Source: an uncultured Bacilli bacterium (lineage in GTDB: Bacteria; Bacillota_I; Bacilli_A; RF39; UBA660). Taken from it: a stretch of DNA of 64,000 nt. The translations under genes were made by a program, and so were the position numbers. The notes beneath the pieces are model-generated. The model had not been told where the DNA came from. It saw only the letters and a list, made by a program, of their open reading frames with translations, and searched no databases. The stretch spans positions 6,115 through 70,114 of the forward strand of contig CAKOHH010000001.1 of the NCBI GenBank assembly GCA_934085675.1, given 5' to 3'. Of this stretch, positions 8,224-62,706 are shown piece after piece; within the stretch, counting starts at the first letter, position 1; each line of letters starts with the position of its first letter.

Positions 8224-9154
8224 AAGTGCCGGTATTACCATTGTTATTTTACTCGTCCTTTCTTCCTTTTTAGGGGGATATGGCATGTTTTTACATCATT
8301 CTAAAAAACAGATTATCATTAATAATGAAAAACCAAATACAAATAAAGAAAAATTTTTTGATAATAAATTATGGTTTTATTCGGAAGACGGAGAGTTAAT
8401 TGGTAATTATGAATGTGTTTCTAGTGAATGCGACATTGCTAAAAATACTGTGACTGATGGTACATATAAAAAGACTTTTATTGATTCTTCTGCTTACGTT
8501 AAAGTTATTCAAGATAGATATGCTTTTATTACAGATGATGGAATAACTTTCTTATATGATATAAAAACAAAATCAGCCTATAAAACTACAACTTATAAAG
8601 AAGTTAAAGATTATGGACAGGGACTAACTAATGATAATGTTATTTTAGCCGATATGGATGGTAATTATGGCGTAATGAGTTTTCTAAATATGCCCCATAT
8701 GCTTATTCCTTTTACTGATAATTATAAGTTCATTGGTCTTTCTTATGAAGAAAGTACAGAACTTTTAAATTCGGATTATTACATTGCTTTAAAAGATGGA
8801 ACTTGGAATATTATTGATACTAATGACGCGACTTTAACAGCAAATATTACTGAACCAATCGTAGCTTTTAATGGGGACGTTATTATCATTGAAACACTTA
8901 ATAATGATAATGTTTTGATTGATTATAATAATAATGAAAAATTAGATGGTCATTTTAAAAAATTATCTTTTACAGGTAAATATTTAAATTGTACAACAAA
9001 TGAAGATACTTTCTATGTTTACGATTTAATGAATAATAAAATAATTAGTGATACCTTTTCTTTGGCTGGTAATGAAGGTAAAACAATTTTAGAAGAAACA
9101 AATCTAAAAGTATATGTTGGTAATAGTTTAAGACAAACGATTAAACTATCTTGA
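8183..9154 (+). CDS. Hypothetical bitopic membrane protein, paralogous to the preceding gene
   Basis: 323 aa; N-in TM anchor; shares GxYEC...C motif just after the TM and YAFI[KT]D..YL.D motif with the 754-aa protein; overlaps its stop. Confidence 0.55.
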   Translation: MRKKRRLMDKRITKSAGITIVILLVLSSFLGGYGMFLHHSKKQIIINNEKPNTNKEKFFDNKLWFYSEDGELIGNYECVSSECDIAKNTVTDGTYKKTFIDSSAYVKVIQDRYAFITDDGITFLYDIKTKSAYKTTTYKEVKDYGQGLTNDNVILADMDGNYGVMSFLNMPHMLIPFTDNYKFIGLSYEESTELLNSDYYIALKDGTWNIIDTNDATLTANITEPIVAFNGDVIIIETLNNDNVLIDYNNNEKLDGHFKKLSFTGKYLNCTTNEDTFYVYDLMNNKIISDTFSLAGNEGKTILEETNLKVYVGNSLRQTIKLS

Positions 9155-9823: not shown

Positions 9824-12335
9824 AAAATATAATCATTTAGAAGTAGAAGAGGGAAAATATAATATTTGGAAAGAAAATGGCTATTTTGAAAGTGGTAAAA
9901 ACAATGGCAAACCATTTTGTATTGTTATTCCCCCACCTAATGTAACAGGAAAATTACATCTTGGTCATGCTTGGGATACATCTATTCAAGATATTATGAT
10001 TCGTTATAAAAGAATGCAAGGCTTTGATGCTTTATGGGTTCCAGGAATGGATCATGCTGGTATTGCCACTCAAGCTAAGGTAGATAAAAAACTTCGTGAA
10101 GAAGGCATTGACCCACGTAGTATGAAAAGGCAAGATTGGCTAAAAGAAGCCTGGAAATGGAAAGATGAATATGCATCTAATATTCACCGTCAATGGGCTA
10201 AACTTGGCCTAAGTGTCGATTATTCTAAAGAAAGATTTACTTTAGATGAAGGACTATCTAAAGCTGTCCGTAAAGTATTTGTTGATTTATATAACGAAGG
10301 CCTTATCTATCGGGGAGAAAGAATGATTAACTGGGATCCTGTTGCTAAAACGGCCTTGTCAAATGAAGAAGTTATTTATAAAGATGTACCAGGTAATTTT
10401 TATCATTTAAAATACCCAATTAAAGGCACAGACGAATATTTAGATGTAGCCACAACTCGTCCAGAAACAATGTTTGGGGATATGGCAGTTGCGGTTAATA
10501 AAGACGATAAAAGATATCAAAAATACATTGGTAAAACCGTTATTTTACCACTTGTTAATAGAGAAATACCTATTATTGCCGATGAACACGCTGATATGGA
10601 AAAAGGTACAGGTTGTGTTAAAATAACCCCTAAAAGTGATCCAAATGACTACGAAGTAGGCAAAAGACATAGTCTAAAAGGTATTGATATTTTAAATTTA
10701 GATGGTACTATGAATGAAAATTGTCTTTCTTATGTTGGTATGGACCGCTTTGTATGCCGAGAAAAATTACTCGAAGAATTAAAAGAAAAAGGATACTTAC
10801 TTAAAGTAGAACCTATTATCCATAGTGTGGGCCACTCTGAAAGAACTGATGCTATGGTAGAGCCTATGGTTTCTAAACAATGGTTTGTTAAGATGAGACC
10901 TTTGGCTGATAAAGTTTTAGAAAATCAAAAAAACAAAGAAACGAAAGTTAAATTTTTACCAGCACGTTATGAAAAAATAATGAATCACTGGATGGAAATA
11001 ACCTATGACTGGTGTATTTCAAGACAACTTTGGTGGGGACATCAAATACCAGCTTGGTATAAAGATGGCAATGTTTACGTTGGTATGGAATCTCCTAAAG
11101 AAGAAGGCTGGGTTCAAGATGAAGATGTTTTAGATACGTGGTTTTCCAGTGCCTTATGGCCATTTTCAACCCTTGGTTGGCCTTTAAACACAGATTTACT
11201 TTCTAAGTATTATCCAACGAATGTCTTAGTAACTGGTTATGATATTATTCCTTTCTGGGTTAATAGAATGACTTTTCAAGGCCTTCATTTTACAAATACT
11301 CGTCCTTTTGAATATTGTTATATTCATGGTTTAATTAGGGATAAACAAGGTAGAAAAATGAGTAAAAGTCTTGGCAATGGGGTAGATCCTATGGATGTAA
11401 TAGATTCTTATGGGGCTGATGCTTTAAGATACTATTTAACTACTTCTACAGCTGGGGGAACTGATTTAAGATACGATGAAGAAAAAGTAAAAAGTACTTG
11501 GAATTTCATTAATAAAATCTGGAATGCTTCTCGTTTTGTGATGATGAATTTAGACGGTTTAGATGAAAAAGAAGAACTTACCTTAAATAAAGAGGATAAA
11601 TGGATTTTAACAAAATATAATGAAACAGTTAAAGCTGTAACAAAATATATGGATAAATTTGAATTCCAAAACGTTGGTACTATTTTATATCGTTTTATTT
11701 GGGAAGATTTCTGTGATAAATATATCGAAATGGCCAAATTTCATATGAGTGAAAATACAACAAAACTTGTTTTACGTAAAGTTTTAGTAGGCATTTTAAA
11801 AATGCTTCATCCATTCATGCCTTTTGTAACAGAAGAAATTTATCAAAAAGTTTTAGAAACAAAAGAGACTATTATGTTGAGTGAATATCCAAAATATGAT
11901 AAAAAAGAAGTGTTTAAAGAAGTTTGTTTAGACGTTGATGATGAAATGGAATTCATTCGTATATTTAGAAATATGAAAGCAGAACATAACATTGGCAAAG
12001 AATATCACGTTTTATTAAATAATAAAGAAGATTATAACTTTATTATGCAAATATTAAAAATAACAGATCATATAGCCTCTGAAAGTCAAAGTCAAAATAA
12101 ATATGAAGTAGTTTATAAAAACTATAATATGACTTTATGTGACGAAAAAGAAGAAAGTAAAGAAGATATTGAGAAAAAAGAAAAAGAAATATCTTTCTTA
12201 AAAGCAAGTATTGAAAAAAGAGAAAAATTATTAGCCAATGAAAACTTTGTAAAAAAAGCACCAGAAAAACTTGTTAAAGAAGAACAAGAAAAATTAGAGG
12301 CTGAGAAGCAAAAATTAAGTTTATTAGAGAAATAA
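9807..12335 (+). CDS. valS: Valyl-tRNA synthetase
   Basis: 842 aa; HIGH motif (PNVTGKLHLGHA), KMSKS motif, C-terminal coiled-coil; RBS AAGGAGG. Confidence 0.95.
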   Translation: MDLIDKKYNHLEVEEGKYNIWKENGYFESGKNNGKPFCIVIPPPNVTGKLHLGHAWDTSIQDIMIRYKRMQGFDALWVPGMDHAGIATQAKVDKKLREEGIDPRSMKRQDWLKEAWKWKDEYASNIHRQWAKLGLSVDYSKERFTLDEGLSKAVRKVFVDLYNEGLIYRGERMINWDPVAKTALSNEEVIYKDVPGNFYHLKYPIKGTDEYLDVATTRPETMFGDMAVAVNKDDKRYQKYIGKTVILPLVNREIPIIADEHADMEKGTGCVKITPKSDPNDYEVGKRHSLKGIDILNLDGTMNENCLSYVGMDRFVCREKLLEELKEKGYLLKVEPIIHSVGHSERTDAMVEPMVSKQWFVKMRPLADKVLENQKNKETKVKFLPARYEKIMNHWMEITYDWCISRQLWWGHQIPAWYKDGNVYVGMESPKEEGWVQDEDVLDTWFSSALWPFSTLGWPLNTDLLSKYYPTNVLVTGYDIIPFWVNRMTFQGLHFTNTRPFEYCYIHGLIRDKQGRKMSKSLGNGVDPMDVIDSYGADALRYYLTTSTAGGTDLRYDEEKVKSTWNFINKIWNASRFVMMNLDGLDEKEELTLNKEDKWILTKYNETVKAVTKYMDKFEFQNVGTILYRFIWEDFCDKYIEMAKFHMSENTTKLVLRKVLVGILKMLHPFMPFVTEEIYQKVLETKETIMLSEYPKYDKKEVFKEVCLDVDDEMEFIRIFRNMKAEHNIGKEYHVLLNNKEDYNFIMQILKITDHIASESQSQNKYEVVYKNYNMTLCDEKEESKEDIEKKEKEISFLKASIEKREKLLANENFVKKAPEKLVKEEQEKLEAEKQKLSLLEK

Positions 12336-49142: not shown

Positions 49143-49186
49143 AAACGCCTATCATAAAATAGAATTATGATTGGCGTTTTTTGACA
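49143..49186. terminator. Bidirectional terminator between def (+) and 375-aa gene (-)
   Basis: AAAAACGCC(A)...TGGCGTTTTTT; minus-strand gene stop codon lies inside the hairpin. Confidence 0.6.
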
Positions 49187-50292
49187 AGTACTTCTTTTGA
49201 TGATTCTTCAAAAGAAGTAAGACATTGTTTCATATTTTCATATAAAGACTTATAGGCATTTAATTCCATACGTAATTTTTGAATTTCCGCTGTTTTTTCA
49301 CTATCACTTTTTTTGAGTTCTTTATTTTCTATTTGCAAAGAATTTAATTCTTCTTTTAATTCTGAATATGTTAATTCATCACCTGCTCCAGCCTTAAAAT
49401 GAGAATTATTGATAGCATAGCAAAGTTTTTTTATATAAAAATCATCATAATCGGTACTAATTGGAAAAGCATTTTTACCAACAGAGGCCGTGATTTCTTC
49501 TAAGAAAGCATTGTTTCTTTCTTTTTCTAATGTCTTATCACGATTATTTAATAACACTCTTTCATAGTCACGAGAAACGACAATAGACATATCAAATTGA
49601 TTCGACCATTGTCTTAGTAATCGTAATCTCAATTTTTTTTCTTCGGAATTAAGCCACATTTTTTTATTAATTTTCTTAATAAAAAGTGTAGTTGGAAAAG
49701 AACACTCTTGTTTTTGTAAGTATTTCATATACTTATCAAGATTACTTTTATTCCAGCACATATTAGAAACAGGAATATAATGTGCATCTTCATCCTTACG
49801 TAAGCCTAATACGGCATAATCATCTTCCATTTCTTTAATAATTAAATAATCAACATCTATGGCTTCTGGTAAATCATCCTGCCAGTTTTTAGATTTATCA
49901 ATTTTTATTGTAGCAGCTACGGCTAACAAACCATAACGGATATTGGTTTCAAAAACTTTAATCTTTTCTTCAATCATCGGTGAAAAAAGCAAATTGAAAG
50001 CAATATTTTTCTTAATAAAATACCCATAAAAGCGATAATAATCATCTAACATATAACGAAGTAATTCAAAAGAATTCATTTTTTTGGTTTCTAATAATGG
50101 ATTGGCATTTTTAATCAAATCGGTATTCACCCCAAGTAAATGAGCAATTCTATTTTCATTAATTTTAAATTGTAAATTATCTCCTGAAGCTATATTGTAA
50201 TAAAAAGTAAAGTCCTTTGTCCGTAACTGTTCATAATATTCTAAACATTTTTTCAAAAGAATACATAATTTTTCATATTTTTCATAACTCAT
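49165..50292 (-). CDS. Hypothetical protein with C-terminal coiled coil (375 aa)
   Basis: ORF between def and smc; heptad-rich C-terminus (LKEELNSLQIENKELKK...). Confidence 0.55.
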   Translation of the reverse strand: MSYEKYEKLCILLKKCLEYYEQLRTKDFTFYYNIASGDNLQFKINENRIAHLLGVNTDLIKNANPLLETKKMNSFELLRYMLDDYYRFYGYFIKKNIAFNLLFSPMIEEKIKVFETNIRYGLLAVAATIKIDKSKNWQDDLPEAIDVDYLIIKEMEDDYAVLGLRKDEDAHYIPVSNMCWNKSNLDKYMKYLQKQECSFPTTLFIKKINKKMWLNSEEKKLRLRLLRQWSNQFDMSIVVSRDYERVLLNNRDKTLEKERNNAFLEEITASVGKNAFPISTDYDDFYIKKLCYAINNSHFKAGAGDELTYSELKEELNSLQIENKELKKSDSEKTAEIQKLRMELNAYKSLYENMKQCLTSFEESSKEVLVKKRQS

Positions 50293-55425: not shown

Positions 55426-55501
55426 TGTCCTCATAGTAAAATGGATATTACAAGATCCTCCTAAGATTTAGTTGTAGGTTCGATTCCTACTGGGGACACC
55501 A
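55426..55501 (+). tRNA. tRNA-Arg (anticodon CCU)
   Basis: Acceptor GTCCTCA/TGGGGAC (one G-U), D-arm GTAA/TTAC, anticodon loop CT-CCT-AA, T-arm GTAGG-TTCGATT-CCTAC, encoded CCA. Confidence 0.8.
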
Positions 55502-55502
55502 T

Positions 55503-55588
55503 GCAAGAATGGCGGAATTGGTAGACGCGCTACTTTGAGGGGGTAGTGAATTATATTCGTGGGAGTTCAAATCTCCTTTCTTGCACCA
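55503..55588 (+). tRNA. tRNA-Leu (anticodon GAG), type II with long variable arm
   Basis: Acceptor GCAAGAA/TTCTTGC perfect 7 bp, GGAATTGGTAGAC D-loop, anticodon loop TT-GAG-GG, 13-nt variable arm, T-loop TTCAAAT, encoded CCA. Confidence 0.85.
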
Positions 55589-55704
55589 ATGTAGAAGTTA
55601 GGTGAACTTTAGTTCAATTTTACCAATGATTATCAATTCTGGAAATGAAATTGACTTTTTTTACCAAAATGTGACAGAACATAAAACAAGCAAAATAATG
55701 ACTA

Positions 55705-56358
55705 CTAACTGTAGCCATTATTTTGCTTTATATTATTAAGTATGCCCATAACTTCATTATATACTTCACTATTATTTTCAAATATTTTCTTTATTTCCTT
55801 GTTTTGATACGATTTAATGAAGTTTTCTATTTCGCTTAACGCCAAAGTAATGTTATCTTTATTTATTTTATCTTTAATAATCATTAATGCTGTATTCCTA
55901 TAGCCCATAATCGCAACACCTGCCAATGATTTATAATATTCTTTATCTGGCAAATTCGATTTTAAATAAAAATTCATAGCAAGTTCATCGGTTATGTGTC
56001 TTGGATTAGTTGGAATTATTTTATTACTTTTAATTACACCAAGTGGTGATAATTCACTAGAGCACTCTATTATTTTAGTGCCATCTGGAATTATTACATC
56101 ATAAACGGTATCTCCGTTAACTAACCATCTTAATATTTTATCTTCGGCATAAAAATCAAATCCGCCCATTTGCTCAGGTTCAGAAGTATTGGGATTCCAT
56201 TTATTTGCAGTATTTACTTCATCAATTTTATATTTAAAATTAAATTCTTTATTTTCAAACATAACTTTCATATACTTTGGTTTACTATATAATTCATTTA
56301 TAATTAAACTGGTTTTATAGTTTTTTAGAAGATTACTTTGTTCTTTATTTGTTATCAT
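55705..56358 (-). CDS. Hypothetical protein (217 aa), second gene of two-gene operon
   Basis: ATGA start/stop overlap with upstream 708-aa gene; no recognisable motif; very AT-rich. Confidence 0.55.
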   Translation of the reverse strand: MITNKEQSNLLKNYKTSLIINELYSKPKYMKVMFENKEFNFKYKIDEVNTANKWNPNTSEPEQMGGFDFYAEDKILRWLVNGDTVYDVIIPDGTKIIECSSELSPLGVIKSNKIIPTNPRHITDELAMNFYLKSNLPDKEYYKSLAGVAIMGYRNTALMIIKDKINKDNITLALSEIENFIKSYQNKEIKKIFENNSEVYNEVMGILNNIKQNNGYS

Positions 56359-58481
56359 AATCTATTCTCTCCTGCTTTTTTACCTATTTCACTAACCAAA
56401 TAACTATCAATCATCTCAACTAATAAATCACTATCAATGCCTAATTCTTGTGAGTGTTTTATATATTTTTTTTTCGTTTCAATTTTATGCTTTTCATTTA
56501 AAATTGCATTTTTTAATATTTCCATATTCATTGCTTTTAACTGATTATCTTCTATAGAACTAATATCGTTTATTATTCCTATTAATATTTGATTTATAAT
56601 ATTCTTTGAAAAATACTTTTCTCTCAAATAGTTATGAGGATATCTTAAACCCATTCTATTATTTTCAAAATCGGTAACTATTCTTGTTAATAAACTAGAA
56701 TTATGTGTTTGATAAAATTCTTCAACCATTTTATTAATTTTAAATAATTCAGATATTGCACATTTTTCCCTATTTATCTTTACAACAGGAATGTTAAAAT
56801 CTTGTGCAGCTTTTAATGAAATTGCTTTTATTCTTTCTTGTTCAACTAATAATTGCTTAGTTTCTTCATCTATTTCTTGATTATTAATATCATTATCAAT
56901 TAATTCTTCAAACATTACTATATAATCTGGATTTTTCTTGTAATGTTCTCTATCTTGAGATAAATCTCTTCTTTCAAATACTAATTCATTATAATCACTT
57001 CGCGTATTATCAATTAAAGAATTTATACTCATAAATTCTCCAAAATGATCTTGAGAATTAATTTGCCTACTTGTACATGTAGAACCTAAATCATGTGAAC
57101 CAGATAATAATAGCATTCCAGTTTCAAAATTAGAAAAACCTAAACATATATTTCTAATTGTTGCAGTTGATAAATTATTATTTGCTATTAAACTGCAACA
57201 ATTACCGTGCGATCTTATAGAATTGTTATTCCAATATTTTGAATAATTTGATTGTGTTTCCATTTCAGGCCTATATGCGCCAACTGATGTTAATATTATT
57301 TTAAAATCTGTTCCAGCATCATATATTTTAACACCATCTTTTACTTCATAATTTTCACTATTGCATTTAAATGTAGAATTTGTTAAATGCCTTAAGAATA
57401 TATCTCTCATCCCATTTTCAAATAATGAAATTGTCATATAATCCAAACAAAAATTACAATTATTTGAAATTTTTTCATATATTTGAAATAATTTATTTAC
57501 ATCAGTTTCATTTGCAACATTATAAATACTTCTATACATGGAAATATATTTATCAGATTTATCAAAATCGATACCGTCTAAATTAAATTTTTCAATTATT
57601 GATTTAGCATAATCAAGTTCTATTCCGTAACTTCTCATCAATATAGCTGTTTTGATATTATTTATATCATCAGTCGAATATTCATTTTGATTCTTAAATT
57701 TATTAATTGATTCACTTGTAAAAGCTAATATTTTTTTTTCAATTTGCCTAAGTTCAGATATACTATTAATTGTAAATTCAAAATTATTATTAGAAAATAC
57801 AAATATCAACAAATCTAAATCATGTTCCGTTAATTGCTCATTTGTAAAAGCATGTGATAAATTTTTAAAACTTTGTGTTTTCTTTTGAAACATTTCATCA
57901 TTATATTTTGGAAATGTCAGCAAACTAGCAGTAATTGATGTTCCAATTATGCCAAGAATTCTTGATATATATGGTATTGCATTACTTGTTTCAGCAACAA
58001 CCTTATTATACATTTTTGAAAAAAGATTTAAACTTGCATCATCCAAACTTAAGATTAATTGTTGGATTCTAATATCAGTAACTAGAAAATCCATATATTT
58101 TTCCAAAAAAGAATATTTATCGTCCAGCAATAATGGATTTAATGTTTCATACCAAGAATCATTATTAGATACAATTTTTTTTAATCTTTTAAATTGTATT
58201 TCTGTTAAAGGCAACTTTACAATTTCAGATTTTACTAAATCATAATCCATCCATAATTGACCCAATAAAACTTTTGTCAAAGAATCAGTTATGTTATATT
58301 TAGAAATATAATATTGTAAATTATCACTTTTGTCACACATAATTTGATAATATTCCACCGGATAGCTATCATCGTTATAGTCTATTTCATCACTTATTCT
58401 ATTGATTAATTCATAATCTACTTTCATAGCCTCACATCCTTGTAATAATACAATATCATAAAAATGATGATACAATATCAA
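56355..58481 (-). CDS. Hypothetical large protein (708 aa by track; 690 aa if ATG 58427 is used), no recognisable catalytic motifs
   Basis: Track start is TTG; first ATG (MKVDYEL, 58427) has AAGGA ~10 nt upstream; no Walker A, no TM; Cys-containing segment HGNCCSLIANN...LSGSHDLGSTC. Confidence 0.6.
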   Translation of the reverse strand: MILYHHFYDIVLLQGCEAMKVDYELINRISDEIDYNDDSYPVEYYQIMCDKSDNLQYYISKYNITDSLTKVLLGQLWMDYDLVKSEIVKLPLTEIQFKRLKKIVSNNDSWYETLNPLLLDDKYSFLEKYMDFLVTDIRIQQLILSLDDASLNLFSKMYNKVVAETSNAIPYISRILGIIGTSITASLLTFPKYNDEMFQKKTQSFKNLSHAFTNEQLTEHDLDLLIFVFSNNNFEFTINSISELRQIEKKILAFTSESINKFKNQNEYSTDDINNIKTAILMRSYGIELDYAKSIIEKFNLDGIDFDKSDKYISMYRSIYNVANETDVNKLFQIYEKISNNCNFCLDYMTISLFENGMRDIFLRHLTNSTFKCNSENYEVKDGVKIYDAGTDFKIILTSVGAYRPEMETQSNYSKYWNNNSIRSHGNCCSLIANNNLSTATIRNICLGFSNFETGMLLLSGSHDLGSTCTSRQINSQDHFGEFMSINSLIDNTRSDYNELVFERRDLSQDREHYKKNPDYIVMFEELIDNDINNQEIDEETKQLLVEQERIKAISLKAAQDFNIPVVKINREKCAISELFKINKMVEEFYQTHNSSLLTRIVTDFENNRMGLRYPHNYLREKYFSKNIINQILIGIINDISSIEDNQLKAMNMEILKNAILNEKHKIETKKKYIKHSQELGIDSDLLVEMIDSYLVSEIGKKAGENRL

Positions 58482-58652
58482 AATAAAATAAAATTTTACA
58501 TTTTTTAACTAATTTTGCTAATACTGTGATATATTTATATCAGTTAGTAATTATTACTAGCTAAAAATTTAGGCCTAATAGTTGTAATACTTCTATCAAA
58601 AGGCATCCAACTAAATAACGATTAGTAAAAGAAGATTTATAAGGAATTATCA

Positions 58653-59165
58653 ATGAAATATAACAAAAATAATAAAATATATCCTATTATATGTAGTTCA
58701 TATGCAAACTTAGATATGACGCTTGATATATGGATAAAATTTACAAGTCATTTAAAACCAGAGGAAAAAGAAATTTTAGAAAAGATTAATTCAAAGTCAA
58801 TTGGAACTATTAACTCTATAGATTTTGAACAATACTTACAAATTAAAAAACGTCTTTGGAAAGCATGTTTATTTAAGAAATACCAAAACAAAGAATGTTC
58901 AAAGGAAGAAATACATGAGGTCATCTCTTTCATGCATTCTCCTTTAGAAGATTTTATGATAGAAAGATTAACTGAAAGTGAAAAACAAGAAGCTGATTTT
59001 TATCTTTCCCAAATGAATACATTAGAAGAATTGAAAGAATATCAAGAAAAAAAACAAAAAGATTATATTAATTTAAGTGTTAGTGAGGCTTATGTTTTAT
59101 TTAAAGTAAAAGAAAAAATTTATGATTTAGAACAAGATTTTTATCAAAAAAGGCAATCGCGATAA
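58653..59165 (+). CDS. Hypothetical protein (170 aa), divergent from the 708-aa gene
   Basis: ORF with downstream palindromic terminator; no recognisable motif. Confidence 0.5.
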   Translation: MKYNKNNKIYPIICSSYANLDMTLDIWIKFTSHLKPEEKEILEKINSKSIGTINSIDFEQYLQIKKRLWKACLFKKYQNKECSKEEIHEVISFMHSPLEDFMIERLTESEKQEADFYLSQMNTLEELKEYQEKKQKDYINLSVSEAYVLFKVKEKIYDLEQDFYQKRQSR

Positions 59166-59184
59166 CTACGAAAAAGGATATGAA

Positions 59185-59212
59185 TTCATATCCTCTTTTT
59201 TATGTTTTAAAT
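59185..59212. terminator. Bidirectional terminator (perfect palindrome around GAATTC) between 170-aa gene (+) and sortase (-)
   Basis: AAAAAGGATATGAATTCATATCCTCTTTTTT. Confidence 0.55.
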
Positions 59213-59227
59213 AAAAAGTTATCATCT

Positions 59228-59923
59228 TTAAAGAGAATAACTTTTTACCTCTTTCATTAAAATAAGTAAATAATCTCCCACTGCTTTATCATAGTTGCAT
59301 GTTTGTAAAACAAGTATTTTATCAGTAGCCTTCACCCCTACTTTCGTATCATATAAAGCATGTTCTTTCATCTTTTCTAAATGATGTAAAAATTCTGTTT
59401 GTGAAGAAAAAGTAAGCCTCATATGTTCATTATTATCTTTATTAACCCCTATAACACTAAAAATCAAGTATTCTGACTTTCTTTTTCTTGTTTCTAAGAA
59501 AAACTTTGGATATTCTTTGTAAAAAGCATAAGACGTGTAGTTAATTAAAGGGGCAAAAACACCCGTATGGTCTTTAAAATGATGTCCATAAATATTTAAT
59601 TGATAACTTTCATCTATTTTATTACGATAATCTAAGAATGCTTGTCCCTCTTTTGTTTCCTTATCATACAAATCATGTTTTAAATAATAGCTATTATTCG
59701 TACTTTGCGTTATCAATGTATCTATTCCAATTAAAGAAGTTAAATGAGCAACAACTTTTTCATTATTAAAAATATCTTTTTGAAAAGTATCATCTGTAGC
59801 AATTTCCAAATTTTCATTTTCCTTTGTTTTTTCTTTCTGATAACTATAAATTGCCTCTGGTTTAATAAAATAAAGTAGAAAAAGACTAATAACTACTAAT
59901 ATTAGTTCTAATATTTTTTGCAT
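59228..59923 (-). CDS. srtB: Class B sortase
   Basis: N-terminal TM anchor, His in NIYGHH, catalytic Cys in LVLQTCNYD (TLxTC-like), 231 aa; immediately downstream of an IPPTG-protein. Confidence 0.8.
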   Translation of the reverse strand: MQKILELILVVISLFLLYFIKPEAIYSYQKEKTKENENLEIATDDTFQKDIFNNEKVVAHLTSLIGIDTLITQSTNNSYYLKHDLYDKETKEGQAFLDYRNKIDESYQLNIYGHHFKDHTGVFAPLINYTSYAFYKEYPKFFLETRKRKSEYLIFSVIGVNKDNNEHMRLTFSSQTEFLHHLEKMKEHALYDTKVGVKATDKILVLQTCNYDKAVGDYLLILMKEVKSYSL

Positions 59924-61674
59924 ATTCTTTTCTTTAATATAAAAATAACCAAAGAAATTAAAATTAAAACAGGATAAGATAGTTTAAAGTTCTCTCCAGT
60001 TGGGGGAATTTGTTCTTCAAAAACAGCTGAAACTTTTTTATAAACGTATATGACCGTGATATCTTCTTTTTGATAAACGCCTTTACTATTTAAAGGAATA
60101 CCAACAAGTTCGTAGTTTAAAATTTCTTTACTTTCAGTTTCATAGTTATCATCTAATGAACCTGTCATTTCAATCGAACTTAATAGTTCATTTCCTTCTT
60201 CATCAACATATTTTACAATAACTTTACCAAGTAAATTATGGGCTGCTTTTAAAGAAATATTCTCTCTTGTTTCTAAAGCCTTATCATATTTTTGAACAAA
60301 ATAATTTTCTTCATCATGAACATTATATCTTTTTTCTTCCGTATCTAAATACCAATCATCAATCAAATGATCACAGTCATCTAAGTTCCAATTTATAGAT
60401 GTTTTAGAAAAGTTAAATAATGCGTCTGTTACATTATAAATATCATCCCCAGCTTTACCAGCGTGATTATTATATAAAGCACTATTAATAGCGTTAACAA
60501 TACCTTTATTATAAATACCACCACCATAAGTAGAAGCATGATTATTTTGAATAACAGCTTTATTTGGTAAAGTAAGTGTTCCGGCGTTAAAGATACCTGC
60601 GCCATTTGACTTATCTTTGTTTTCTGTAATTTCTAAAAAAACATCAGAATCAAATTTAAATTGACCATAATTTTCTAAGGCATTACTCTTATTACCTTTT
60701 AAAGTTACTTTGGCACCACTAGCAATATTACCAACACTTTTATTTAGGTTACCAGAAGTTCCAAGGCGCAGACCACCGCCGATAAAACCATAGCCATTTT
60801 CATTAGAAATAATAGTTGATGAATCATCTACCGTGATTTCATTTGTGGAAGTAATACCATAATAGGCATTGTTGGTTGCATTAATAACAGAATTATTAGA
60901 AACCTTTAAAATACCCGTTGATAAGCCATGGCCAGCATTATTCAAAAAATTAATCTTAGAATTCTTAGCTTCAAAAAGGCCACCATTAGAGGCATTAGCA
61001 GTACAATTTTGCACCGTAAAATTAGAATTTTCCACATAAACCGTTGGACTATTAACATAACCACGATTTGCCCCATCAATTAAAAAACTAGAATTATTTT
61101 TAACAAATATACCTGAACCTGCTGTCATATCAAGTTGAATACCTTGACCAGTTTTACCTAAAGTATTAAGGCCTTCTATTTTGAAATTAGCATTATTGAT
61201 AACATTAATTGTTGCTTTATTATCAGCATAAATAGCGTTTCTAACTCCTTTATTACTATCATAAGAAAATGTAATACTACCTTTATTTGTCGCGGTTAAA
61301 TTACCTCCTAAAACCATACTTGCCCAAGTAGGCGCTTCGCCATTATCTGCTTTTTGCATTTTTTCTTTCGAGTTAATAACTAAATGACTACCATCCAAAG
61401 TTAAATCACTTTTATAACGCCAACCATAAACATTGTAAGTAATTGTAAAATTCCCTTTAAATGTTAAACTTTTATAAAATGTTTTGGTCGGATTTACATC
61501 ACTTAAAAGAGTAATAGTGTCCTTATCTTGAGCACTTAAAATAGCCTCATCAATATCTTCATATTTTACTTCTTTACCATCTTTCACTAAAGATGCAACT
61601 TCTAAAGCCTCCACCTTACCTAAAAACATAAATAAACTAACTACTAAAATTATAAAATAACCTTTCCTTTTCAT
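59908..61674 (-). CDS. Sortase-anchored surface protein with Gly/Asn-rich parallel beta-helix-like repeats
   Basis: Signal peptide; repeated GxGI(F/Y)N / NNxAxxGG segments (Pmp/pectate-lyase-like); C-terminal sorting signal IPPTGE + hydrophobic TM + KKRICKKY tail. Confidence 0.75.
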   Translation of the reverse strand: MKRKGYFIILVVSLFMFLGKVEALEVASLVKDGKEVKYEDIDEAILSAQDKDTITLLSDVNPTKTFYKSLTFKGNFTITYNVYGWRYKSDLTLDGSHLVINSKEKMQKADNGEAPTWASMVLGGNLTATNKGSITFSYDSNKGVRNAIYADNKATINVINNANFKIEGLNTLGKTGQGIQLDMTAGSGIFVKNNSSFLIDGANRGYVNSPTVYVENSNFTVQNCTANASNGGLFEAKNSKINFLNNAGHGLSTGILKVSNNSVINATNNAYYGITSTNEITVDDSSTIISNENGYGFIGGGLRLGTSGNLNKSVGNIASGAKVTLKGNKSNALENYGQFKFDSDVFLEITENKDKSNGAGIFNAGTLTLPNKAVIQNNHASTYGGGIYNKGIVNAINSALYNNHAGKAGDDIYNVTDALFNFSKTSINWNLDDCDHLIDDWYLDTEEKRYNVHDEENYFVQKYDKALETRENISLKAAHNLLGKVIVKYVDEEGNELLSSIEMTGSLDDNYETESKEILNYELVGIPLNSKGVYQKEDITVIYVYKKVSAVFEEQIPPTGENFKLSYPVLILISLVIFILKKRICKKY

Positions 61675-61740
61675 CTTTTCCTCCGTAAAATATATTTTTT
61701 ACTTCTTAAAAATCTTAAGGGTTAAAAACTTATTCAGTTT

Positions 61741-62370
61741 TTAACGTACTTCATAATACTGCCGTAGTTTTTTTAAGCTCTTTTGTTCATATCTAGAAAT
61801 CATTACTTGACTCATACGCATTTTTTTGGCCGTTTCACTTTGCGTTAAATCATTAAAATAACGATACTTAATAATTTTCTGTTCTTCTTCTTCTAAAGAT
61901 TCTATTCCCTCTTCAAGGGTCAGTTTTTCTTCTAGGGAAATGCTTTCTTTACTCGGAATGGTCTCATAAAGTTCTCTTGCTTCCTTGGTGTTATCATCAA
62001 GACTAGTCATTTCTCTTGTTACATATAAAACTTCTGCAATTTGAGTTAAAGGAATCTCTAAATATTGGGAAAGTTCTTCGTAATTAGGAATTTTTCCTAG
62101 TTTTAAACTAAGAGCATTTCTGGCGTGTTCAATTTGTTTTGCTAATTTTAAAATGTCTTTTGTTACTTTAATCTTACGATTTTTCATAACAAGTTCATAC
62201 ATTTCTCCAAAAATATAATCATAAGCATACGAGGAAAACTTCACATTGTTATTTTGACGATAGTTTTTATAGGCTTTTAAAACCCCTATCGCTCCAGCTT
62301 GCATTAAATCTTCAAACGGAACTTCATAGAACTTAGCTGCGATGTGTTTGATTAAAGGAGATAACTCCAA
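61741..62370 (-). CDS. Sigma-70 family sigma factor, SigF/SigG/SigB-like (group 3), N-terminally short
   Basis: 209 aa; regions 2.2-2.4 (FEDLMQAGAIGVLKAYKNY...KFSSYAYDYIFGEM), region 3, region 4 HTH (LTQSETAKKMRMSQVMISRYEQKSLKKLR); TTG start, frame closed 7 codons upstream. Confidence 0.8.
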   Translation of the reverse strand: MELSPLIKHIAAKFYEVPFEDLMQAGAIGVLKAYKNYRQNNNVKFSSYAYDYIFGEMYELVMKNRKIKVTKDILKLAKQIEHARNALSLKLGKIPNYEELSQYLEIPLTQIAEVLYVTREMTSLDDNTKEARELYETIPSKESISLEEKLTLEEGIESLEEEEQKIIKYRYFNDLTQSETAKKMRMSQVMISRYEQKSLKKLRQYYEVR

Positions 62371-62400
62371 AATAAGCGAAGCTGTGTTTATTTAAATCAC

Positions 62401-62706
62401 TCACTTTCCATTTTGTATGCGCATACGATATCCCATTAAACTTTCTTTAATATCATTTTTTACATTGCAAAGCAGAAATTTTCCTTGTTGTTTTTTCAAA
62501 ATAATTTTTGTTTTTAAAAGAACATACCTCCCTTCACTATCAACCTTCTTTAAATCTCGGCAATCTAAAATAAAAGAAGAAATGTTGTTTTTTTGCAAAT
62601 AAGGAATTACATAATGGTTAATCTTATATGTTTCTTTCTTAGTTAAATTGCCTTTTATCTTCGCGTACAAAGTATGTCCTTCTAAGCTTAAATTTAAAAT
62701 TAGCAT
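62401..62706 (-). CDS. STAS-domain anti-sigma-factor antagonist (SpoIIAA/RsbV-like)
   Basis: 101 aa; FILDCRDLKKVDSEG matches SpoIIAA phosphoserine region (DSSG), GKFLLCNV C-terminal motif; RBS AGGGTGA. Confidence 0.75.
   Translation of the reverse strand: MLILNLSLEGHTLYAKIKGNLTKKETYKINHYVIPYLQKNNISSFILDCRDLKKVDSEGRYVLLKTKIILKKQQGKFLLCNVKNDIKESLMGYRMRIQNGK

Follow-up and report, generated by a model that had tools for sequence, protein, structure and literature searches.

A probable three-layer composite block with a strain-variable two-gene cassette at the 3' end of tRNA-Leu(GAG) in an uncultured gut Bacilli lineage

Introduction

Variable DNA at the 3' end of a transfer RNA (tRNA) gene is a well-known phenomenon. 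The tRNA-associated islands start at the tRNA 3' end, vary between strains and deviate in composition, and an integrase or recombinase gene and a duplicated segment of the tRNA 3' end belong to their usual features. Class B sortases include SrtB of Clostridioides difficile, with (S/P)PxTG substrates, and the SrtB enzymes of Listeria and Staphylococcus. In the partner-switching modules SpoIIAA-SpoIIAB-SigF and RsbV-RsbW-SigB, an anti-sigma kinase gene lies between the STAS antagonist gene and the sigma factor gene. Multidomain proteins of Bacillota combine DUF4116 repeats, a module of ~600 residues and an HD domain.

In this study, a stretch of 64,000 nucleotides (nt) from a metagenome-assembled contig of an uncultured human-gut Bacilli lineage (the window) was analyzed. 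The subject is a 7.3-kb block next to tRNA-Arg(CCT) and tRNA-Leu(GAG), which holds a cassette of two uncharacterised genes, the orphan gene p170, a sortase/adhesin pair and a sigma/STAS pair. A first-pass annotation had described the segment at 55.6-62.7 kb as a genomic islet anchored at the tRNA. The conspecific contigs contained a strain-variable islet at the 3' end of tRNA-Leu, with an extent of 55590-59227. The explanation developed here, in which the block consists of layers of three different ages rather than being one island, is judged probable when taken as a whole.

Materials and Methods

The window's own contig was L002 (ENA ERZ27287180 k141_325049); the other contigs compared are denoted in the same way. 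tRNA genes were called with ARAGORN and Rfam, and protein families were assigned with Pfam, NCBIfam, PADLOC-DB v2 and PHROGs. Conspecific contigs were collected as those encoding an identical ZnuA protein, and L121 (GCA_977039205.1) was found via a homologue of p170. Synteny of the left flank was followed family-wide with rnc as the anchor in 185,579 species genomes, and synteny of the right flank with the sigma factor as the anchor in metagenomes. Composition statistics for the cassette were taken on 55590-58606.

Results

Strain Polymorphism at the tRNA-Leu 3' End

The DNA downstream of tRNA-Leu(GAG) differed between conspecific contigs. The features of this part of the window, with protein lengths in amino acids (aa), are as follows.

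55427-55501, plus strand: tRNA-Arg(CCT), called by ARAGORN and by Rfam (tRNA, 60.2 bits)
55503-55588, plus strand: tRNA-Leu(GAG), called by ARAGORN and Rfam; its CCA end is the left breakpoint in all three strain configurations
55590-58610, minus strand: inserted cassette of 3.02 kb, strain-specific, absent from conspecific empty-site contigs
55688-55728, minus strand: hairpin resembling an intrinsic terminator (stem of 18 bp, then a T-run), located where the 217-aa gene ends
55705-56358, minus strand: gene of the 217-aa protein, no match in Pfam, NCBIfam, PADLOC or PHROGs
56355-58427, minus strand: gene of the 690-aa protein, no match in Pfam, NCBIfam, PADLOC or PHROGs
58653-59165, plus strand, divergent from the 690/217 operon: p170, orphan gene of 170 aa, no match in Pfam, NCBIfam, PADLOC or PHROGs

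Rfam found no structured RNA across 54-64 kb besides the two tRNAs. The first-pass annotation had let the block start at 55426, taken as the 3' end of tRNA-Leu; this coordinate corresponds to the start of tRNA-Arg (55427).

Among the contigs with identical ZnuA, the cassette was carried by L002 and in two similar places. In L001 (and six similar places), L003 (and one) and L004-L008, tRNA-Leu led straight to p170 with no cassette. The flanks of filled and empty contigs were 98-99% identical in DNA alignment, and the homology stopped at 55589 and resumed at ~58603-58611. The empty site was TTGCACCAA joined directly to CTAAATAAC in L001, L003-L008, L103 and L105. In the filled site, the left junction was TTGCACCAA followed by TGTAG, and the right junction was GGCATCCAA followed by CTAAATAAC. 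The insert started 1-2 nt past the CCA of tRNA-Leu(GAG), and placement of the breakpoint was ambiguous by 4 nt owing to a repeated CCAA. The sole flanking repeat was an imperfect GCA(T)CCAA matching at 7 of 8 nt (GCACCAA and GCATCCAA).

The L103/L105 lineage was 7% divergent on the right flank and had other genes to the left of the tRNAs, and its empty site was identical. Therefore, the site was empty ancestrally, and the cassette arrived by insertion. The conspecific contigs L009 and L010 ended inside tRNA-Leu at window-equivalent position 55539, and the left flank of L010 was 100% identical to the window. These ends are consistent with what within-sample polymorphism would produce through branching of the assembly graph.

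A third configuration was found in L121. This contig was conspecific by the amino acid identity of Smc (99.5%), Rnc (100%), ZnuA (99.7%), sigma (99%), STAS (100%) and LCP (99.5%). Its homology to the window ended at 55595 on the left, and its right breakpoint was the sortase stop codon. Between the window equivalents of 55595 and 59228, L121 had no 217/690 pair and carried a 180-aa p170 allele with 61% identity together with a Ppx/GppA gene (L121 7752-9793). The Ppx/GppA gene had a guanine-plus-cytosine (GC) content of 24.8% and no homologue in the 64-kb window. Since L121 replaces the DNA between these points, the strain-variable slot is 55590-59227, bounded by the tRNA-Leu end and the stop codon of the sortase gene. 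The tRNA-Leu flank is thus a hotspot of ~3.6 kb with at least three conspecific configurations. p170 itself had only 6 clusters in 5.8 billion sequences, and its ratio of nonsynonymous to synonymous substitution rates (dN/dS) was 0.06-0.17. Despite its place in the variable slot, p170 is a genuine gene and evolves under purifying selection.

No k-mer of 13 nt or longer from the tRNA-Arg/tRNA-Leu region recurred in the window, and 11-12-mers were rarer than chance. A general repeat search of the window gave AT-rich chance pairs only. Pfam, NCBIfam and PHROGs detected no integrase, transposase or recombinase domain among the open reading frames (ORFs) of the block. The first-pass annotation had likewise reported the absence of an integrase, an insertion sequence and a direct repeat of the tRNA 3' end, and these statements held. 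The search it proposed for an attR-like partial copy of tRNA-Leu gave nothing of 13 nt or longer, and only GCACCAA and GCATCCAA stood at the junctions.

Composition and Origin of the Cassette

The window had an overall GC content of 28.9%. The cassette had a GC content of 24.2%, compared with 29.1% for the rest of the window, and was the lowest of all 3-kb stretches in it. Its 4-mer distance was 0.309, compared with 0.174 ± 0.023 for other windows of the same size, an outlier of ~6 standard deviations. The composition of p170-sortase-MucBP and of sigma-STAS was indistinguishable from the backbone. The AT enrichment that had been ascribed to the whole segment therefore applies to the 3-kb cassette only. 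In the genomes with the closest cassette copies, the flank GC content was 25.2% (L100) and 24.1% (L011), matching the cassette. L123 belongs to a higher-GC host and showed the same contrast as the window (cassette 23.6%, host 28.5%). Because the cassette equals the flanks of the closest-copy genomes in GC content and is an outlier in the window and in L123, the data fit a horizontal acquisition from a lower-GC relative. The dN/dS of the two cassette genes was 0.14-0.25, with 0.17-0.19 for the 690-aa gene; in the comparison with L100 it was 0.25 for the 217-aa gene and 0.19 for the 690-aa gene. Both genes are under purifying selection.

Architecture of the Cassette and Its Copies at Other Loci

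Copies were homologous at the DNA level over a unit that opens ~38 bp ahead of the start of the 690-aa gene and closes shortly after the strong terminator hairpin. The homology to L100 reached 55681 and thus took in the hairpin. An extended -10-like element lay at the upstream edge of the shared unit, and the stop codon of the 690-aa gene overlapped the start codon of the 217-aa gene (ATGA). A search for conserved cassette termini showed that copy-to-copy homology stopped at the promoter and the terminator, and the outer 90-140 bp of this insertion had no match to anything. The cassette is a self-contained expression unit with no recognisable means of self-mobility. It was not found in phage and plasmid searches of IMG/VR, INPHARED and PLSDB.

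Close copies sat in five different neighbourhoods. In the window, tRNA-Leu(GAG) lay 116 nt beyond the small gene. The corresponding tRNAs were tRNA-Gly and tRNA-Cys at 152 nt in L100 (84% aa identity), tRNA-Cys at 161 nt in L014 (60%), and tRNA-Leu(TAG) and tRNA-Met at 527 nt in L123 (84%). In L011 (Clostridium sp. CAG:628, 79%), there was no tRNA beside the pair, and the region held radical-SAM/SPASM and HMUDK_hel genes. The tRNA was convergent with the small gene in every tRNA-adjacent case (4 of 5 contexts). Assuming about one tRNA cluster per 44 kb, the binomial P of the association was 2e-7 for 4 of 5 contexts, and 1e-5 for 3 of 4 when L100 and L014 were counted as one. L117 (5867-6555) also held a stand-alone gene of the 217-aa family, encoding 184 aa, which lay 61 nt downstream of tRNA-Trp and was co-directional with it.

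The 690-aa and 217-aa Proteins

The 690-aa protein had helical N- and C-terminal domains around a conserved alpha/beta core (residues ~355-515), and its AF2 model had a pLDDT of 86.5. The residues W399, G430-F431, D446, T475, N480-E481, R486, P500 and Y502 were kept across 133 sequences, with E481 present in 100% of them. When 1.84 billion cluster representatives were searched with a profile, at least 939 relatives were found, counted as representatives at 50% identity. Many of these were 1,000-2,200 aa long, with DUF4116-type repeats N-terminal to the module. Pfam placed a C-terminal HD phosphohydrolase domain in 13 of 38 large relatives, and a strict motif did so in 28 of 90. No papers on DUF4116 together with an HD domain were found in the literature.

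The 690-aa protein had no fold or sequence match, and a diverse profile of its core found nothing in PDB or Pfam. PDB sequence searches with whole-family profiles and two core-domain profiles gave noise only. A motif resemblance raised the idea of an H-Y-E ADP-ribosyltransferase of the PARP/DT type, which was rejected for want of sequence, profile or fold support. A phage or small-replicon reading of the large relative P0274, which recurs on ~38-kb contigs, was rejected on its chromosomal context (enolase, GerA, SpoIID); the gene lies in the ordinary chromosome of a spore-former.

The 217-aa protein had an N-terminal helix, a beta-rich domain and a helical bundle. Its family comprised at least 300 clusters, mostly solitary genes of ~185 aa, and was conserved at 60-70% identity. 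Fusions to P-loop kinases were found in 7 of 30 cases. An extra N-terminal segment of ~25 residues was present only in the copies linked to a 690-aa gene; the solitary copies examined were without it. A 217-aa protein with 99% identity was found in an independent Logan assembly. The window's copy departed from the family at near-invariant positions (FNFS to FDFY, VRGD to VNGD and VFRSN to VIKSN). An altered or relaxed constraint is suggested for this copy by its sequence.

PADLOC gave no match at E <= 0.1 for either protein. Two large families, absent from Pfam, PDB, PADLOC and PHROGs, form a compact pair that moved between loci. The two proteins may tentatively be pictured as a physical, cytoplasmic two-protein complex, in which the 690-aa protein would be the enzyme-like member, with its invariant Glu/Arg/Asp core, and the 217-aa protein would dock via its N-terminal extension. 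Because large relatives are fused to an HD phosphohydrolase and small relatives to P-loop kinases, the chemistry would probably act on nucleotides or phosphate esters, which these fusions weakly suggest.

The Sortase/MucBP and Sigma/STAS Pairs

The remaining features of the block are as follows.

59228-59923, minus strand: SrtB-like sortase gene, assigned by PF04203, TIGR03064 and PDB SrtB alignments
59908-61674, minus strand: gene of a MucBP surface protein of 588 aa (PF06458, 63.8 bits), overlapping the sortase gene
61741-62370, minus strand: gene of a SigB/F/G-like sigma factor of 209 aa, with Sigma70 r2/r3/r4 (TIGR02980, E 4e-41)
62401-62706, minus strand: gene of a STAS anti-sigma-antagonist-like protein of 101 aa (PF01740, 33.5 bits)

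The block is bordered on one side by rnc, smc, yidD and a ZnuA-type lipoprotein gene, and on the other side, past STAS, by an LCP transferase gene. The gene inventory of the first-pass annotation (a two-gene unknown operon, a divergent orphan, a sortase/adhesin pair and a sigma/antagonist pair) was confirmed, and the family scans agreed that every gene was either uncharacterised or surface/regulatory.

The sortase and MucBP genes were present in every conspecific contig covering them, including L121 and L103 of the 7%-divergent lineage, so that the presence/absence polymorphism expected for the whole segment did not extend to them. They were absent from other genera, and MucBP was not beside sigma in L107, L108 and L116. 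The pair is a lineage-specific addition, fixed in the species, between sigma and tRNA-Arg/tRNA-Leu. The sortase scored 27.8 bits with PF04203 (cut-off 26.6), and its alignment with PDB SrtB had an E value of 6e-18. The catalytic His (GHH) and a TLxTC-type Cys (LQTC) were visible. The score with TIGR03064 was 103.5 bits, below the SrtB equivalog cut-off of 153.75. No Arg followed the catalytic Cys in the three strains examined, where the C-terminal tail was NYDKAVGDYLLILMKEVKSYSL. Of all genes in the block, the sortase gene differed most from strain to strain, with 83-86% aa identity compared with 97-100% for its neighbours. The MucBP protein had a signal peptide, a MucBP domain at residues 484-546, and a C-terminus of IPPTGE, a hydrophobic stretch and KKRICKKY, which was conserved in L001. 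It is likely a substrate of the adjacent sortase, as judged from these motifs. In L004 (12424-14230), the MucBP gene was split into ORFs of 86 aa and 469 aa, a likely frameshift.

LCP, STAS and sigma remained linked at 60-67% identity, and LCP and sigma were still adjacent at ~48-50%; the contigs with synteny around sigma were L106-L108, L110, L111 and L116. In L106, L108 and L116, tRNA-Arg(CCT) came next after sigma, with no sortase, MucBP or p170. The sigma/STAS pair, by this gene order, is old conserved backbone with LCP. As candidates for a group-3 SigB/F/G sigma and a STAS antagonist, sigma scored 141 bits with TIGR02980 (cut-off 234) and STAS 32.7 bits with TIGR00377 (cut-off 53.45), both below the threshold. 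Sigma was short across lineages (209-214 aa), and the STAS protein kept the DSEG serine motif. No anti-sigma kinase gene lay in the 30-nt gap between STAS and sigma; the search covered this locus, and the rest of the genome was not searched. Because STAS keeps DSEG while no kinase gene lies between the pair, a kinase encoded elsewhere or a kinase-independent mechanism would be implied. The same two-gene STAS-sigma layout beside LCP was seen at L108 2228-3188 and L116 9651-10612. In L008, the sigma ORF was called at 187 aa (8425-8988) and LCP at 447 aa, with an rve-type transposase fragment after LCP (11107-11325).

On the left, ftsW-def-smc-rnc-yidD-znuA was conserved family-wide, and znuA was followed by other tRNAs or genes that differed by genus. 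Since the downstream neighbours of znuA differ between genera while sigma/STAS/LCP are backbone, the tRNA pair is a synteny breakpoint. Core genes had been placed on both flanks of the segment. This was correct on the left; on the right, the conserved unit is LCP with STAS and sigma, and the proposed right border falls within the backbone.

A 375-aa gene with a PBECR4 domain (a phage/toxin-type nuclease family) lay between def and smc in the window (49165-50292, minus strand). Because def directly adjoins smc in other genera (L024, L029 and L047), this gap is a second lineage-specific insertion slot. An additional 190-aa ORF was observed at the def-smc slot of L121.

Discussion

In the proposed explanation, the oldest layer would be the vertically inherited arrangement of LCP-STAS-sigma followed by a tRNA. 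The sortase/MucBP-adhesin pair would have been added in the lineage between sigma and tRNA-Arg/tRNA-Leu. The youngest part would be the hotspot at 55590-59227, 3' of tRNA-Leu(GAG), where the cassette was inserted right after CCA+A. The cassette would bring an extended -10-like promoter, the 690-aa gene, the translationally coupled 217-aa gene and a terminator. Since the cassette carries no recombinase gene and its ends are not conserved, its insertion may have been catalyzed in trans or may have been an illegitimate recombination event involving the GCA(T)CCAA microhomology; either route is put forward tentatively. The contig comparisons show the anatomy, the polymorphism and its polarity. The idea of an islet was right in part, and its boundaries were wrong: polymorphism was found among conspecific contigs for the cassette and the p170 slot, while in other lineages sigma/STAS kept its synteny with LCP at identities as low as ~48%. 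In composition, the cassette deviated strongly and the rest of the block was backbone-like. Conserved synteny with core-like composition, which the first-pass annotation had named as counting against an islet, was found for roughly half of the block.

Several points weigh against this explanation or limit its reach. All contigs compared are metagenome assemblies, with no isolate genome among them. L100 and L014 share downstream genes and may represent one ancestral insertion, which would leave fewer independent tRNA events. Homologues of the 690-aa protein at ~40% identity stand alone among housekeeping genes (LeuRS/PFOR, CoaE/TilS), and the 690-aa family is therefore not intrinsically mobile. 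The flanking repeat of 7/8 nt could be chance or a deletion scar. Catalysis in trans is a conjecture, no integrase having been identified in the window's block. The functional reading of the two proteins rests solely on domain fusions in distant relatives, and no fold or profile match supports a specific chemistry.

Treating the whole 55.6-62.7 kb as one old islet at the tRNA, with decayed integrase and att repeats, would account for a block whose genes are all uncharacterised, surface or regulatory, none of which follows znuA in other genera, and whose GC content as a whole is slightly low (26.8%). However, the low GC content stems entirely from the cassette, and the other parts are backbone-like. 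STAS-sigma is tied to LCP in lineages down to 48% identity, in other genera LCP lacks synteny with the left flank, and the tRNAs are a synteny breakpoint rather than an insertion point between conserved neighbours. With three ages of conservation within the block, the single islet is largely refuted and very improbable. The cassette might also be ancestral at this site and lost from most strains between the short GCA(T)CCAA repeats. A direct repeat of 7/8 nt does flank the segment, and a deletion through such microhomology would produce precisely the empty site that was seen. Yet strains of three divergence classes (1.3%, 2.1% and 7%) share the identical empty site, which would need repeated identical deletions; the cassette is a strong compositional outlier that matches lower-GC genomes, and related cassettes lie at different loci in other organisms. 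Loss by deletion is accordingly considered improbable. A chimeric assembly could be suspected, since the sequences are metagenome assemblies and L009 and L010 break in tRNA-Leu. The same arrangement occurred in L002 and in two similar places, and the 99%-identical 217-aa protein came from an independent Logan assembly; the junctions were clean to the base, the genes were intact and under purifying selection, and contig breaks at the tRNA are expected of within-sample polymorphism. The cassette is almost certainly not an artifact of this kind.

The function of the cassette allows further readings. It could be a module of a new type for anti-phage defence or toxin-antitoxin-like conflict; this would explain why it is strain-variable, AT-rich and moving between loci. 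This suits a horizontally acquired compact operon with its own promoter and terminator, an enzyme-like core with an invariant Glu, and the position of the L011 copy in a region with radical-SAM/SPASM and HMUDK_hel genes. Against it, there was no PADLOC or PHROG match and no copy on phages, plasmids or IMG/VR contigs. Distant members stand singly in stable surroundings of housekeeping genes or, in spore-formers, are very large proteins encoded on the chromosome, and the partner family, at 60-70% identity, is unusually conserved, unlike typical immunity or antitoxin proteins. Such a role is unlikely. A bolder and distinctly unlikely possibility is that promoter-690-217-terminator is a new minimal mobile module landing preferentially and convergently beside tRNAs. 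The 690-aa protein would then represent a new class of enzyme, acting as an effector in conflict or defence or else in its own targeting to tRNA flanks, and the 217-aa protein would be its regulatory or targeting partner. The 690-aa protein shows an invariant Glu-Arg core, lacks a Pfam or PDB relative and recurs in fusions with HD phosphohydrolases.

The three-layer explanation matters for the calling of islands from tRNA proximity and gene content alone in uncultured gut Bacilli, since a hotspot of ~3.6 kb here lies beside species-fixed and family-conserved genes. The cassette is of moderate interest for its lack of a recombinase and att sites, its significant tRNA association elsewhere and its two sizeable uncharacterised families. 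The recurrent HD and P-loop-kinase fusions offer a testable starting point for the biochemistry of both families. The practical importance is modest, unless the cassette proves to be a new defence or mobility module.

Compared with the known systems, the locus resembles tRNA-associated islands in that it starts at the tRNA 3' end, is strain-variable and compositionally deviant, carries accessory cargo and has alternative inserts at the site. Unlike them, the insert is only 3 kb long, has no integrase or recombinase and no duplicated tRNA 3' segment beyond 7/8 nt, and copies at other loci do not share its ends. The STAS-sigma pair is like the SpoIIAA-SpoIIAB-SigF and RsbV-RsbW-SigB modules in having a STAS antagonist-like gene immediately upstream of a SigB/F/G-like sigma gene and in retaining the DSxG serine motif. 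It is unlike them in having no anti-sigma kinase gene between the two, here and in all relatives examined, in its short sigma, which stays under the family cut-offs, and in its linkage to an LCP transferase.

The sortase/MucBP pair shares with class B sortase systems the adjacent, overlapping genes for sortase and surface protein, the conserved His and TLxTC-type Cys, and a substrate with IPPTG, a hydrophobic segment and a basic tail. It differs from SrtB in scoring below the equivalog cut-off, in having no Arg after the Cys in the strains examined, and in that the putative substrate is a MucBP adhesin rather than a haem-uptake protein. With the multidomain proteins of Bacillota that combine DUF4116 repeats, the 690-aa module and an HD domain, the window's protein has in common the ~600-residue module and its invariant core (W, GF, D, T, NE, R, P.Y). 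In the window, the module is bare and is followed by a separate, translationally coupled 217-aa gene, which lies on the side where the large relatives carry the HD domain.

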